In this document: piece by piece, positions 14,681-41,981 of the stretch | Layout: each line of letters starts with the position of its first letter | Position numbering within the stretch: position 1 is the first letter of the stretch | Origin: Desulfatiglandales bacterium | GTDB taxonomy: Bacteria; Desulfobacterota; DSM-4660; Desulfatiglandales; Desulfatiglandaceae | DNA: 64,000 nt | Reading direction: 5' to 3' | NCBI GenBank assembly: GCA_963662465.1 | Contig: OY759599.1 | Span: 608,001 to 672,000, forward strand | Made by a program: the position numbers and the translations under genes | Notes under the pieces: model-generated | What the model saw: the letters and a program-made list of their open reading frames with translations, nothing else | Told to the model about the DNA's origin: nothing | Database searches by the model: none

Positions 14681-14948
14681 TCTCCGTAGGCCCGTTGCTT
14701 GTAATCGACGCTTAAAGACATTCAATTAATTTCACCATATCATCCGACCCTGGCCCTTAACCGGGGAGGATTCCCGGAGGGGTTCTCCTGTCAACATTTG
14801 AACCCACTTCGGTACATTGTCCGCAGGGCTTCGCACCCCATCATCAGCGCAATGGTAACACGCCTGCGTAGGGTCCGGCAGGAACATGCCGGGTACTACA
14901 TGTAACTACATGAATACACTAAAACTATGCGACTTCGTGTCGCAAGCC

Positions 14949-15000
14949 AACCAGTGATTGTGCGGTTTTTTTTGTTATCAAGTATCCAAATCTACATGTT
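14949..15000. repeat. 52-bp att-like element, copy 1 (copy 2 at 48293-48344)
   Basis: AACCAGTGATTGTGCGGTTTTTTTT…ACATGTT; 4 mismatches between copies; identity ends at AAC and at GTT. Confidence 0.8.
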
Positions 15001-33281: not shown

Positions 33282-33647
33282 ATGGAAGGATCACAAAGTT
33301 CCAAGCCCCTCTCCGGTCATCCTAATCGCGAGGTTCGGGTGATGGCGGGGAGGGAGATTCTCTTCGATAACGAGGGATTCCTGTGGAAAGCGAAAGACTG
33401 GACCGAGGAAGTGGCAAGGATCCTTGCCGCCGAGAGTGGGCTTGAAGAACTTAGCGAGATCCAATGGCGGGTCATAAATTTTTTGAGGGATTTTTACGCC
33501 TATAACGGCCGGGCGCCCATGAACCGGGATATCAAGGCGGAGATCGGTTTGAGCTTCATGGAGATGGAGGCCCTTTTTCCTGACGGCATCCGCAGAGGCG
33601 CCCGCCGCGTGGCAGGTTTGCCGAATCCCAAATCATGCTCGGGATAG
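33282..33647 (+). CDS. TusE/DsrC-family sulfur relay protein
   Basis: DNEGFL…WTEEVA…W.VINFLR…AGLPNPKSC with C-terminal Cys. Confidence 0.9.
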   Translation: MEGSQSSKPLSGHPNREVRVMAGREILFDNEGFLWKAKDWTEEVARILAAESGLEELSEIQWRVINFLRDFYAYNGRAPMNRDIKAEIGLSFMEMEALFPDGIRRGARRVAGLPNPKSCSG

Positions 33648-33652
33648 AGCCT

Positions 33653-34814
33653 ATGACGGAACATTTCATATACCTTGATAACGCGGCCACTACTTTTCCA
33701 AAACCGCAAGGCGCTCTGACCCGTATGGTGGAGACCTATGAGCGCATAGGGGTTTCCCCCGGACGCGGGAGCTATGACCTCGCTGTTGAGGCGGCGGATC
33801 TGGTTTTCGCGACGAGGAGACGGCTCGCGCGGCTATTCGGGGCGCCGGACCCTGATCGCGTCATATTCACGGGGAACGCCACGGATGCTTTGAACCTTTG
33901 CATTCAGGGCTTGATAGGGCAGGGCGATCATGTGGTTTCCACCCGGATCGAGCACAACTCGGTTCTTCGACCCCTGTATCACCTTCGGCATCAAGGCTTG
34001 ATAACATACGATCTGGCGCCCTTCGACGGCAGGGGCTTTGTTGACCCAAACGATATTGCCAAGGCCATAAAACCCCATACGAAGCTGGTGATCGTGTGCC
34101 ATGCCTCCAACGTGCTGGGAACCATCCAGCCCATAGCCGAAATCGGTCTGCTTTGCGCGGAAAAGGGGGTGCCCCTGCTGGTGGATGCGGCGTAGAGCGC
34201 GGGGGTGATCCCCATTGACATGGACGCCTGGAAGATTGCAGCCGTTGCCTTTACCGGCCACAAGTCTTTACTGGGTCCAACCGGCATCGGGGGGCCTGGT
34301 CATCCACCCTGACCTGGACCTTCGAACCACCCGCTTCGGCGGTACCGGCATCGATTCTGAAAACCCGATTCATACTCAGCGCTACCCCCATCGCCTGGAG
34401 GCCGGAACCATCAACCTCATGGGGATTATCGGGCTTTCGGAAGGTCTCCGCTTTCTGGAGAAGAAGGGCATTGAATCGATCCACCGGGAGGAGATGAGAT
34501 TGCTCACCAGACTCCGCGACGGGCTGGCGGCATTGGAGGGGGTGGAATGTTACTGTGTTGAAGATTTGTCAGATCATGTGGGCCTCATGACCATGAATAT
34601 CAGGGGCATGGATCCGGGGGATGCGGGCGCCATCCTGGACGCCGATTTCGGGATCGCCGTACGTGTGGGGCTTCATTGCGCACCGCTGGCTCATGAGGGC
34701 ATCGGGACTTTTCCCCGGGGCGGCGTCCGTTTTAGCCTGGGGCCTTTTAACACGATGGATGATGTGGATCGGGCGGTGGAAGCCGTTACCCGGATGGGTC
34801 GTGCGCGGTTATGA
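33653..34814 (+). pseudogene. Cysteine desulfurase (class V PLP), disrupted by a TAG at 34193-34195 and a +1 frameshift in the G run at 34289-34294
   Basis: YLDNAATT, EHNSV, VDAA*SAG (normally Q), GHKSLLGP, EAGT, RVGLHCAP. Confidence 0.88.
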
Positions 34815-35177
34815 ATTAAGTTCAAATACAACCCTTAAAGACTGGTTAATTTCCTGTACGTTGTCTATTGACAATCTTCCCCGAATTTTAACCAGCCTAT
34901 GACGATGATCTATTGGACGTGTCTGCAAACAGTCTGCTACGGATTTTTTAGATAGGCCATTATCGGATGACGGATAAATTTTAACATTGGTTTTTATTCG
35001 CGCTTTTTTTGCACTCCATTCAGTAATTGGAACAACCTGGATAACAGGAACTCTTTCATTATAAATATCGTTAGTCACAACCACACATGGTCTAATTTTT
35101 CCAGTTTCTGAACCTTTTGTCGGATCAAGATTGACGTCAATAACCATACCTCTTTTCAGCACTATCATTTCGGCCAT
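34809..35177 (-). CDS. MazF/PemK-family toxin
   Basis: RG…VNLDPTKGSETGKIRPCVVVTND…VVPIT. Confidence 0.92.
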   Translation of the reverse strand: MAEMIVLKRGMVIDVNLDPTKGSETGKIRPCVVVTNDIYNERVPVIQVVPITEWSAKKARIKTNVKIYPSSDNGLSKKSVADCLQTRPIDHRHRLVKIRGRLSIDNVQEINQSLRVVFELNS

Positions 35178-35398
35178 CCGTTTAATGCAGTTTCGGTCAA
35201 TTCTTTTAAATCATCATCTTCAGAATAAATTTCAGAATATAGCTCAGCGGATTTTCTTAGACTTTCAAGTTCCATTTCTTTCTTGAAATGCTCTATAGCC
35301 TCACGAAGCATAGCGCTTTTATCCTTAAATCCATAAACTGTAAAATTATTCAAAAACTGGGCTTGCGTTTCTTCAACGCTGAATTTTGCCTGTAACAT
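35165..35398 (-). CDS. Putative antitoxin (RHH-like) of the MazF pair
   Basis: 77 aa, acidic C-terminus, overlaps the toxin start. Confidence 0.75.
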   Translation of the reverse strand: MLQAKFSVEETQAQFLNNFTVYGFKDKSAMLREAIEHFKKEMELESLRKSAELYSEIYSEDDDLKELTETALNGWPK

Positions 35399-35499
35399 AC
35401 GGCCTCCTTTTAAGTGCTTATATTGGGCCTTTATTTATAGGCCTACAATAGGGTCCAATGCACTGAAAGTCAATGAAACTGTTTGAGCAGACGGGAAAA

Positions 35500-35561
35500 G
35501 GCGAACGCTTCGGCTCACCGGACCCGCGCTGTTTGCGGGGGTCCGGGGGGAGCCGGTGGTT
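35500..35561 (-). other. attC site interrupted by a group II intron (rest of R'' at 36390-36393)
   Basis: Reconstituted top strand GCAT|AAC-CACC-GGCTCCCC…CCGGACCC…GGGTCCG-GTGAGCC-GAAGC-GTTCGCC. Confidence 0.8.
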
Positions 35562-36389
35562 GTGTGCCGGGCACGGCACGTGTTCTTAAGGGTGCGTGTA
35601 ATGTATCATGCTTCCGATATGTTACGCAAGTCCCAGACCCAGCCAGGTAGTGGCGAAGGGTGTGCGGGGTATCACAACCAGGTACCCGGTAACGGGCTTG
35701 GAGAGGCAGTGGCCTTGCTACGGCAGGGTACCGCGAACGCACGGGGCGACGAACAGAAATCGAGTCAAGCGGGTCTGGTGGGACGAGTCCGCAACACAGG
35801 ACAAAGTCCTCTAACTACTATAGGCCAGGCACGTAGTCGGCGCTCGTGTGCGGAAAGACACGTGTTTACCCCGGGAGGCTCGTTGCGTCTCGCAGGGAAC
35901 TGCAACTGAAACATACCGGAATATAAGTGAAAACCGGTAAAACAAAACCCTGGCGCCAGGGATATTTCGCGTCATGGCCCTGACGAGCCCGACCAACTGG
36001 TCGGGAAACACAAACAAATGGACTCGACAGATTGCAGAAACTACGAGTGAGTAAACTGCAAGGGGAGCCCACCGCGTAACGGGAGTCAGCAGAGGGCATA
36101 TTAAGCTGGAGAAACGAGTCCTGAATAAAGGGAGGCCTCACTCCGGTGAAGGCCCGAACGGTGCCACCTGCCGAATGGCAGGGGTAAATGGTTGTGGTTG
36201 TCAAAGAACGTGTACTTATTGGTCTAATGCAGCGGTAGCTGAAAGGTCGATAACGTCGCATTCTGGAAAACCCAGTAGGGCGGAACCTGTTTTATCCGTG
36301 CCTGCGCTGACCAGTCGAATCGCCGTATACGGACCCGTATGTACGGTGGTGTGGGAGGGGGGAGCTGTGAGGCTCCTCCCTATCCCTAT
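35562..36389 (+). mobile_element. ORF-less group IIC (attC-targeting) intron, 828 nt
   Basis: 5' GTGTGCCGG; DI end GGAGTCAGCAGAGGGCATA; DIII GAAGGCCCGAAC; IIC-type DV with CGC triad (GAATCGCCGTATACGGACCCGTATGTACGGTGGTGT); DVI ending CCCTAT; no RT ORF. Confidence 0.85.
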
Positions 36390-37221
36390 ATGCACACGTT
36401 TCACCGAACTTTTCTTTCAACCAGGCACACATTACCTGAAAGAAATCATCTTTTGCATATTTCTCTTTTGAAGGCGAATGCCCGCATTTTTCAAATTTAT
36501 GATATTCCAGTTGAGGTACATACCGTTTCAGTTCATCCCTTATCATTTCTCCCGGATGCGGATCATATGTGCCGTGCAGCATGAGTACCGGGGACCTGAT
36601 AACTGTAAAAGACTGAGGATATACCCTCTCTTCCTGGCAGCGGATCATGTCGTTCCATGTCTCTGTGTGCGCTTTCATATCAAACAATTCCGTTCCCGAA
36701 TTCCCGATGATGTCAGTCACACAATCGTAATTGTCTGTCATTTCATGCCACTTCATGATCTGTTCCTGAAAAGACAGATGCAGATCAGAACTGTGCTCCG
36801 GGTGCTTTTTTATGTAATCGAAAATTCTGCGCTTCCGTGTTCTTATCGCCTCCTCACGGGAACTTCTGTCAAAAGTTCCGCAACCGATAAGTACAAGAGG
36901 CCCGACTGTCTCAGGATACTCCGCGGCATAAGCCAATGCGAGCATTGCCCCCCATGAGTCACCGACAAGCGCGGGAACCTGATCGCCGCATCGGGCAGAT
37001 ATTAACTGATGGAGATCGGAAATATGAACAGCAACAGATAACGGCATGTCACCGCTGACACGCTGCCAGGGTTCAAATACTCTGAAATTGTCAGCCAGAC
37101 CTTCGGCTACCGGTGCGGCACTTCCCGATGCACCGGGGCCACCGTGCAGGACTATTACAGGAGATCCTTTTTCTCCGTAAATGCCGATACGTTTATTTTC
37201 CTTCCATCCCAACTTATCCAT
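36390..37221 (-). CDS. Alpha/beta hydrolase cassette gene; native stop codon split by the intron
   Basis: LHGGPG, GDSWG nucleophile elbow, D and H triad residues; removing the intron gives …GETCA-TAA. Confidence 0.88.
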
Positions 37222-37242: not shown

Positions 37243-37320
37243 GTGTGCACCGATTTCAGCTGCGTTGCCCGGAGCGAGGAACGAGCGACGGGTAACGACA
37301 GGTGGAAACATTCGTTGGGC
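37243..37320 (-). other. attC site with deleted R' core
   Basis: GCCCAAC-GAATG-TTTCCAC…(CGCTCGTTCCTCGCT loop)…GCTGAAATCGG-TGCACAC; the expected GTTA of GTTATGC is missing. Confidence 0.7.
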
Positions 37321-37328
37321 TAAATTAG

Positions 37329-41815: not shown

Positions 41816-41981
41816 CTAATGCAGCAGTAGCTGAAAGGTCGATAACGTCGCATTCTGGGAAACCCGGTAGGGCGGAACCTGTTTTATCCGTGCCTGCTCT
41901 GACTAGCCGAATCGCCGTATACGGACCCGTATGTACGGTGGTGTGGGAGGGGGGAGCTGTGAGGCTCCTCCCTATCCCTAT
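41816..41981 (+). mobile_element. 5'-truncated copy of the group IIC intron (end of DIV, DV, DVI)
   Basis: 166 nt nearly identical to 36224-36389, ending at the same CCCTAT boundary. Confidence 0.9.

Follow-up and report, generated by a model that had tools for sequence, protein, structure and literature searches.

The 828-nt element described here very probably represents an old, multi-species lineage of non-autonomous, SINE-like group IIC introns, which would form an attC-targeting branch in the Desulfobacterota, be mobilised in trans, insert after the conserved GTT of the attC, and have a recombinant intron as its helper. It lies in a cassette array of the window, by which we mean the whole stretch of 64,000 nt of contig OY759599.1 (Desulfatiglandales bacterium) that was analysed. 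The features of the intron and its surroundings, in window coordinates, are:

34809-35177, minus strand: MazF/PemK toxin
35165-35398, minus strand: putative antitoxin of 77 aa, upstream of MazF, without a family match
35445-35473, minus strand: promoter-like TTGACT-17-TATTGT before the toxin-antitoxin pair (weak: 1 found, 0.6 expected by chance)
35500-35561, plus strand: attC bottom strand forming the 5' exon, with the R' complement GGCGAAC, the L-box stem and an intact R'' GTT at 35559-35561
35562-36389, plus strand: ORF-less group IIC intron, 828 nt, GUGUG...AU, with Rfam RF02001 and RF00029 above gathering scores
35567-35874, plus strand: domain I (DI), about 310 nt, closed by CCGGG/CCCGG (fold z -3.0; RF02001)
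35793-35796, plus strand: EBS1 AACA, part of the loop GCAACACA that caps a 4-bp stem, pairing with the exon end GTT
35876-36083, plus strand: domain II (DII), about 208 nt, multibranched (fold z -2.9)
36095-36159, plus strand: domain III (DIII), with approximate limits, from landmark motifs
36160-36318, plus strand: mini-domain IV (mini-DIV), 159 nt, conserved and covarying in the ORF-less lineage
36205-36264, plus strand: long DIVa-like hairpin, putative maturase-binding site, homologous to the start-codon region of the RT-bearing G069 intron
36318-36389, plus strand: domains V and VI (DV, DVI), with the CGC triad at 36321-36323, the bulged A at 36382 and the AU end (model alignment)
36390-36393, plus strand: start of the 3' exon, ATGC, a displaced piece of the original R'' and the first base of the hydrolase TAA
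36292-37221, minus strand: alpha/beta hydrolase cassette ORF (Pfam PF00561), 277 aa plus a 32-aa read-through into the intron
37243-37325, minus strand: upstream attC at the end of a 328-aa hydrolase cassette, with R' GGT rather than GTT
41816-41981, plus strand: 3' fragment of a second ORF-less copy (half of the mini-DIV, DV and DVI), with the 3' exon ATGT

Structure of the intron and its mini-domain IV

The intron begins with GTGTG at 35562 and ends with CCCTAT at 36389. The Rfam model of the IIC-type DI (RF02001) matches it at 35683-35865 with 81.7 bits against a cut-off of 32, and the DV/DVI model (RF00029) at 36318-36389 with 45 bits against a cut-off of 40, with the CGC triad present. 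Boundaries, model matches and triad all agree with the ORF-less IIC intron of 828 nt that had been proposed in a reading made from the sequence alone (hereafter the sequence-only reading). The reverse transcriptase (RT) that it took to be missing is indeed absent from these 828 nt, the longest stop-free frame having 141 codons and a search there for YxDD finding none. The GUGYG 5' end, the AY 3' end, the six-domain fold and the bulged A of DVI are those of group IIC introns, and further IIC features are seen in the short CGC-triad DV, the compact DI, the EBS1 of 3-4 nt and a hairpin replacing IBS2. By these structural features the element is a group IIC intron, and splicing activity is predicted for it. 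The sequence-only reading measured DIV well (~160 nt, against 159 nt found) but erred in assigning about 540 nt to an unusually long DI: folding closes DI with a stem at 35567-35571/35870-35874, at about 310 nt as against 288-291 nt in canonical IIC-attC introns (n=2), and the long domain is DII. A DII of about this length is common to RT-bearing relatives (210 nt in G202), but those of G049 and G069 measure 62-65 nt.

The mini-DIV is 154-167 nt long in 13 sequences, and the lineage carrying it spans seven genomes. Changes on both sides are seen in 16 of its 50 predicted pairs, a number reached in none of 500 shuffles, with slid controls giving 3-9; as these 13 related sequences also served to predict the structure, the count is biased in its favour. 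Within the mini-DIV, the hairpin at 36205-36264 can be aligned to the region around the start codon in the RT-bearing G069 intron, with the ATG changed to ATT at 36218-36220. By analogy with the TeI3 introns, we interpret this hairpin as a putative maturase-binding site; the ancestor of the lineage would have lost almost the whole RT ORF and retained the start-codon DIVa hairpin for docking. An origin of the mini-DIV by simple deletion of the resident RT intron was rejected, as the two match only over 31 nt at the start of the mini-DIV, 25 nt at its end and a further 16 nt (E = 0.14).

Copies of the lineage and their helper

The host genome (G000) contains five full-length ORF-less copies of 826-836 nt, including the one in the window, which is 94-95% identical to the others; these are 96-98% identical among themselves. 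Additionally, one copy is split by an IS, two are internally deleted with exact junctions and two are fragments. Every host copy sits at a different attC-like site, and all exons differ. Lesions in DV affect two host copies (c2371 and c3353), and four are truncated or deleted. The search for same-length copies at other attC sites that the sequence-only reading had suggested is answered by four more full-length copies in the host and by others in further genomes; with many same-length ORF-less copies at different attC sites, a deletion unique to the window copy after its insertion is not what is seen. The two internally deleted copies (G000:C1:6382247-6382658, 412 nt, and 3220684-3221161, 478 nt) have short microhomologies at the joins besides their exact exon junctions, and these deletions possibly reflect RT template jumps during homing.

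All 829 nt of one host copy are matched exactly by a copy that occupies a different attC in a second species (G010), and near-identical pairs at different sites agree at 833/834 and 813/814 positions. Of 209 genomes of the order, six carry the same mini-DIV type (the host, G010, G049, G071, G172 and G175); a seventh genome with it (G539) turned up in a sample of 401 from the phylum, and metagenomes supplied 13 loci, nine of which cover 750 nt or more. Full-length identity to the window copy is 72-77% in distant members. In run X1 the depth of the intron contig is about 4.5 times that of a single copy. A blastn search of 72,556 plasmid records returned DV/DVI matches only, with no match covering 80% of the query, and a motif scan of genome contigs, using a pattern that was too strict, returned a single locus, the G049 copy.

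The host genome carries a heavy load of mobile elements, with 49 DV matches, 47 RT matches and, among 68 IntI matches, five genes above the IntI cut-off. It also contains a second ORF-less intron family of about 790-870 nt with an AGC triad, whose copies are 93-97% alike (DVs at G000:C1 3354006+, 3334730+, 3323044+, 3315429+, 5887235+, 6378604- and 6751512-); an odd DVI and an identical 3' flank are seen in 5 of these 7 copies. At the attCs at G000:C1 294230, 3353176, 2371410 and 3345186, an IIC intron at R'' is combined with the 5' end of a top-strand intron of a different class, located at R' or immediately behind it; at 2371410 this 5' end directly follows the G of R'. Other ORF-less IIC introns of the order, L064 (G122), L065 (G136) and L024 (G028), measure 646-724 nt, one of them being a fragment, and have the EBS1 ACGU; their unrelated short DIVs indicate independent ORF losses within the same order.

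An RT-bearing sister intron at G000:C1:443329-445451 is the only cognate RT intron in the host. The related RT that the sequence-only reading proposed to look for is therefore present, but its gene is frameshifted: relative to G010 it has a 17-nt insertion, a 1-nt deletion and two 3-nt deletions, whether real or due to assembly error. The 99% identical copy in G010 is intact and encodes an RT of 469 aa from the first ATG, with the YADD motif and a match to TIGR04416. In G175 there is a 77% RT relative with one internal TAG, and G173 (C2) has at least 11 copies of an RT-bearing relative of the lineage; with this query, no cognate RT was matched in G049, G071 and G172, the assemblies of G049 and G071 being 95% and 87% complete. 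A tree of 22 proteins unites six RTs of the lineage in a clade sister to two canonical IIC-attC proteins (88/92), to which the cognate RT is 44-46% identical. The other host RTs, the best of which are 37-41% identical, fall outside this clade and were rejected as the cognate helper, although they might be used promiscuously.

We propose that the intron RNA is served by the maturase/RT of an RT-bearing intron that belongs to the same branch and resides in the same genome. The many same-length copies, the identical copies at different sites, the kept maturase-start hairpin and the cognate RT in the genus all favour the trans mobilisation of a non-autonomous ribozyme suggested in the sequence-only reading, at least as a prediction from sequence; against it stands the broken host RT. 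Given that the host helper gene is frameshifted, the host copies are probably stranded at present.

Comparison of its parts reveals that the helper is a mosaic. It is 99% identical to an ORF-less copy in DI, DII and DIII and 100% in DV-VI, but 57% in DIVa; against the RT-bearing G202 intron, the values are 64-66% for DI-DIII, 83% for DIVa and 78% (nt) for the ORF. In the DI tree it sits at the tips of a group of 11 ORF-less sequences that is separated from five G202-type RT introns (95/96); in the protein tree, its RT belongs with the G202 type (100/99). On these identities and trees the helper intron is a chimera of a ribozyme of the ORF-less lineage and the RT module of another; the helper in the genus would hence consist of ORF-less DI-DIII and DV-DVI around the DIV/RT module of an RT-bearing lineage. 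The ORF-less family and the G202-type RT introns have 42 identical nt in a row at the DIII/DIV junction, and the simplest reading is that an ORF-less ribozyme recaptured a DIV/RT module through this shared stretch, a direction that we infer.

Insertion register and the occupied attC

At all 21 junctions scored on both sides, which include 4 of RT-bearing relatives, the 5' exon ends in GTT (11 TGTT, 9 GGTT and 1 AGTT), and the first base of the 3' exon is A in 18 and G in 3; no loop position covaries cleanly as an EBS3 for these bases. In a wider set of 33 5' junctions, GTT is the terminal triplet of 31, and an AAC...GTT hairpin containing at least 10 L-box pairs is predicted for 30, the latter being a raw count without shuffle control; the misses in this set are due to one wrong coordinate, one junction after the end of another intron and one flank that is too short. 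Two copies in tandem arrangement (L045:355 and L072:924) abut the 3' end of a different IIC intron instead of a GTT.

The EBS1 loop GCAACACA of the ORF-less lineage (EBS1 AACA) corresponds to GCACAAGA in two canonical plasmid IIC-attC introns (L085 and L088; EBS1 ACAA), for which the junction is TTGT/T. Throughout the introns compared, the loop bases that pair with the last three of the exon are the three following GC. The stem beneath the loop shows a compensatory C-G/U-A change among copies. The pairing of EBS1 with the exon end that the sequence-only reading proposed to check is found at the window site, where AACA pairs with GTT, but it involves 3 of 4 bases there, as against 4 bp at TGTT sites. 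Since EBS1 changes in step with the exon end across all the introns examined, the ORF-less lineage inserts one base 3' of the canonical IIC-attC position as represented by these two references. An alternative register, in which the intron starts with U and the site is TTGT/T, was rejected: it breaks the GUGYG and AY ends and goes against the tracking of the exon end by EBS1. The target consensus of IIC-attC introns is given as TTGT/T for "the majority" (PMC7923331); the ORF-less lineage departs from it with NGTT/R at 21 of 21 junctions, although published exceptions may exist. Contrary to the sequence-only reading, then, the position occupied in the window is not the one at which the two canonical introns are found. 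Because it does not conform to TTGT/T, we file the window intron as a variant branch of the IIC-attC introns and not as a canonical member. The RNA would reverse-splice into the folded bottom strand of the attC, and the pairing of EBS1 AACA with the exon end (T/G)GTT would make the insertion fall after the conserved GTT and not inside it.

In the window, an AAC...GTT hairpin with the L-box stem lies at 35504-35561, directly 5' of the intron (z = -4.0, 0/200 shuffles), and the intron is on the plus strand with the cassette genes on the minus strand, an antisense position just after the attC hairpin that had been described correctly before. Equally, the earlier claim that excision restores R'' GCATAAC and the hydrolase TAA stop is reproduced in silico. 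The hydrolase ORF presently measures 309 aa instead of 277, with 32 codons inside the intron; its stop would have been lost at the DNA level, where antisense splicing would be unable to repair it. The start of the cassette (..GTGCACAC) mirrors the reconstituted cassette end (..GTGTGCATAAC), and the left boundary of the 277-aa hydrolase cassette, with its R' GGT, looks degraded independently of the intron. Contigs of runs X3 (a separate study) and X5 join the 3' end of the intron to the same hydrolase. Neither the host genome nor the 209 genomes yielded a hydrolase cassette free of the intron, and no empty allele of the window site was present among the joints listed for 4 runs, whose contigs show presence and not absence. 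A paralogue of the c3353 cassette at 6763402 diverges ahead of the site and is uninformative on the empty allele. An RNA run yielded 9 contigs of relatives only, too little to show transcription.

The array holds several attCs without a nearby integrase, the nearest full intI being 2.6 Mb away. The mazF cassette ends (window 34805-34815) with an R''-like TCATAAC that has no hairpin beyond it and abuts the stop of a convergent cysteine desulfurase, exactly at a GGTT/A junction resembling the intron target. This cysteine desulfurase-like gene (window 33635-34814) contains an in-frame TAG near 34195 and a frameshift, reflecting either a pseudogene or assembly error. Elsewhere in the window (14753-14955, minus strand), the 5' fragment of a non-IIC intron (RF02012), truncated at about 14750, follows an attC-like end.

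The conserved sequence of attC sites is restricted to AAC and GTT (PMC2727003). Canonical insertion splits this GTT, whereas insertion of the window type leaves the GTT/AAC triplets and the L-box stem whole. The first four bases of the intron provide a new R'', ACACAAC, which agrees with RYYYAAC in 6/7 positions, the same score as before insertion at the window site; over all 21 sites the score is 6/7 after insertion and 5-7/7 before. Computed L-box pairing is unchanged (13.5 vs 13.4 pairs at the window site). We regard it as reasonably probable that an intron-occupied attC stays recombinogenic. As insertion after GTT keeps GTT/AAC, the hairpin and a 6/7 R'', the inactivation of the attC claimed in the sequence-only reading is unsupported, and the further claim that it locks the hydrolase cassette to the MazF pair is likewise unsupported, given a second mazEF copy (97%, G000:C1:1348658-1349398) without hydrolase or intron, which retains half of the same attC, cut mid-hairpin; mazEF in the window also has its own weak promoter-like site. 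The statement that the intron inactivates the attC and locks the cassette is thus probably wrong. The intron would instead sit, in antisense orientation, between the cassette gene and an attC whose structure is complete, probably as cargo of the upstream cassette.

Alternative explanations, known systems and significance

Disabling of the attC by a non-autonomous intron nevertheless deserves serious weight, even if we tend to doubt it: the loss of the four bases beyond GTT, or refolding, would stop IntI, and the hydrolase would be fused to the mazEF cassette. The intron does replace the RYYY part of R'', a competing stem between exon end and intron 5' end is possible (35559-35577), and the pairing probability of the R-box falls in 8 of 16 sites, most strongly at c6765 (0.98 to 0.04) and m048; yet it rises in the other 8, and at the window site it is low both before (0.08) and after (0.04) insertion. 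The RYYY/RRRY positions are already mismatched in the empty state of the array (GGCGAAC vs GTTATGC), the triplets and the L-box are retained, and the new R'' never fares worse than a change from 7 to 6. The same intron-bearing cassette was not found with two different neighbours, as this explanation would have it, nor was any cassette found that had demonstrably moved together with its intron; with the nearest full intI so far off, however, locking would not be visible here anyway. Far less probable is a domesticated, protein-independent ribozyme serving the host through HYER-like DNA hydrolysis or as an outward promoter for the next cassette. The long life of the lineage would fit such a role, ORF-less IIC introns can hydrolyse ssDNA (PMC11754743, in the portions available), and IIC-attC introns often have outward promoters (PMC3001079, likewise). 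On the other side, different genomes have no insertion site in common, the maturase-start hairpin is retained, and a scan of the window intron at a threshold of 9/12 found no outward promoter-like site, a DI/DII promoter being common but not universal in IIC-attC introns.

The mosaic could also be read in reverse, with RT-bearing introns as the main lineage, in which an older mini-DIV module replaced the ORF via recombination or RT template switching, possibly several times, such that the ORF-less copies are recurrent derivatives. The identical 42-nt stretch would be a substrate for exchange either way, the "ORF-less" DI clade includes an RT-bearing intron, that of G069, and the unrelated mini-DIVs of G122, G136 and G028 point to recurrent ORF loss. 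We still consider this explanation unlikely, as the 11 ORF-less DIs come from several families and group apart from the five G202-type introns with the helper at their tips, and as the ORF-less copies of G175 coexist with a G174-type RT intron whose ribozyme is just 68% alike. That the window element is a decaying, immobile remnant, left by a one-off deletion of a co-resident RT intron after insertion and copied by DNA duplication or IntI shuffling, is hardly credible. The broken cognate RT gene of the host, the DV lesions in c2371 and c3353 and the four truncated or deleted copies do show decay; but the junctions of the copies are exact and their exons differ on either side, the mini-DIV is common to genomes of other families and cannot be aligned as a deletion of the resident RT intron, and the identical copies at different sites in two species already contradict it.

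Beyond the trans-mobilised, post-GTT lineage that we prefer, a wider scenario can be offered, which is speculative and, taken as a whole, somewhat unlikely: an attC-sparing, SINE-like IIC branch would have spread over the phylum with its own 5' GUGU rebuilding R'', IntI would continue to move occupied cassettes, which would take the intron from array to array and from species to species, RT acting in trans would spread it between attC sites, and autonomy would be regained via DIV/RT recapture.

Among known systems, the lineage is most directly compared with the group IIC-attC introns (S.ma.I2 type), with which it shares the CGC-triad IIC ribozyme, insertion at R'' of the attC bottom strand, opposite in orientation to the cassette genes, and an enlarged DII; it differs in the absence of an ORF, in combining NGTT/R with EBS1 AACA as against TTGT/T with ACAA, and in keeping GTT instead of splitting it. 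The TeI3 introns of Thermosynechococcus elongatus belong to subgroup IIB. In the available text of their description, ORF-less TeI3 introns are mobilised by driver IEPs, and they resemble the present lineage in a single ancestral ORF deletion, a retained and remodelled DIVa and spread beside RT-bearing relatives (PMC2882425); here, too, the same ORF deletion recurs in many copies at different EBS-matched sites. They were, however, described from one genome and have clear ORF remnants, whereas the window lineage is IIC, attC-specific and present in several families, and has as its helper a recombinant intron that carries the ORF-less ribozyme. HYERs (Liu et al. 2024, cited in PMC11754743) are likewise ORF-less class IIC ribozymes with a short EBS1; compared by description only, the window element is distinguished by its length of about 830 nt, long DII, structured mini-DIV and signs of recent attC retromobility. 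The attC is also a landing site of IS1111-attC elements and UHB.I2-type IIB introns (PMC3001079; PMC7923331, both in part), of which the former differ in chemistry (transposase) and the latter in class, strand and attC end (IIB, top strand, R' side).

As far as the parts of these sources at hand go, IIC-attC introns (PMC3001079), trans mobilisation of ORF-less introns (PMC2882425; PMC4424553) and ORF-less IIC introns (PMC11754743) are already known. The shifted register and the RT recapture appear to be new: the literature searched contains no ORF-less attC-targeting IIC lineage, shifted register, cross-family mini-DIV or RT recapture, although NGTT/N junctions or the family may be listed in the 2008-2009 attC-intron papers or the HYER catalogue.

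Together, the above observations would unite attC homing with the trans mobilisation of ORF-less introns, both of them known lifestyles, in a single lineage that persists across families. Non-standard intron derivatives seem not to persist for long in bacteria according to a statement in the available part of a review (PMC4424553), and the cross-family persistence of this ORF-less lineage runs against it. The 60-nt covarying hairpin offers a compact candidate for a maturase-binding site, and the mosaic helper is a candidate for an ORF-less ribozyme regaining an RT, which bears on the co-evolution of ribozymes and IEPs. The shift of one base provides a natural pair for testing whether introns disable integron cassettes or ride them, and the same pair bears on what IIC-attC introns do in integrons, where their role has been called undetermined (PMC3001079, in part).
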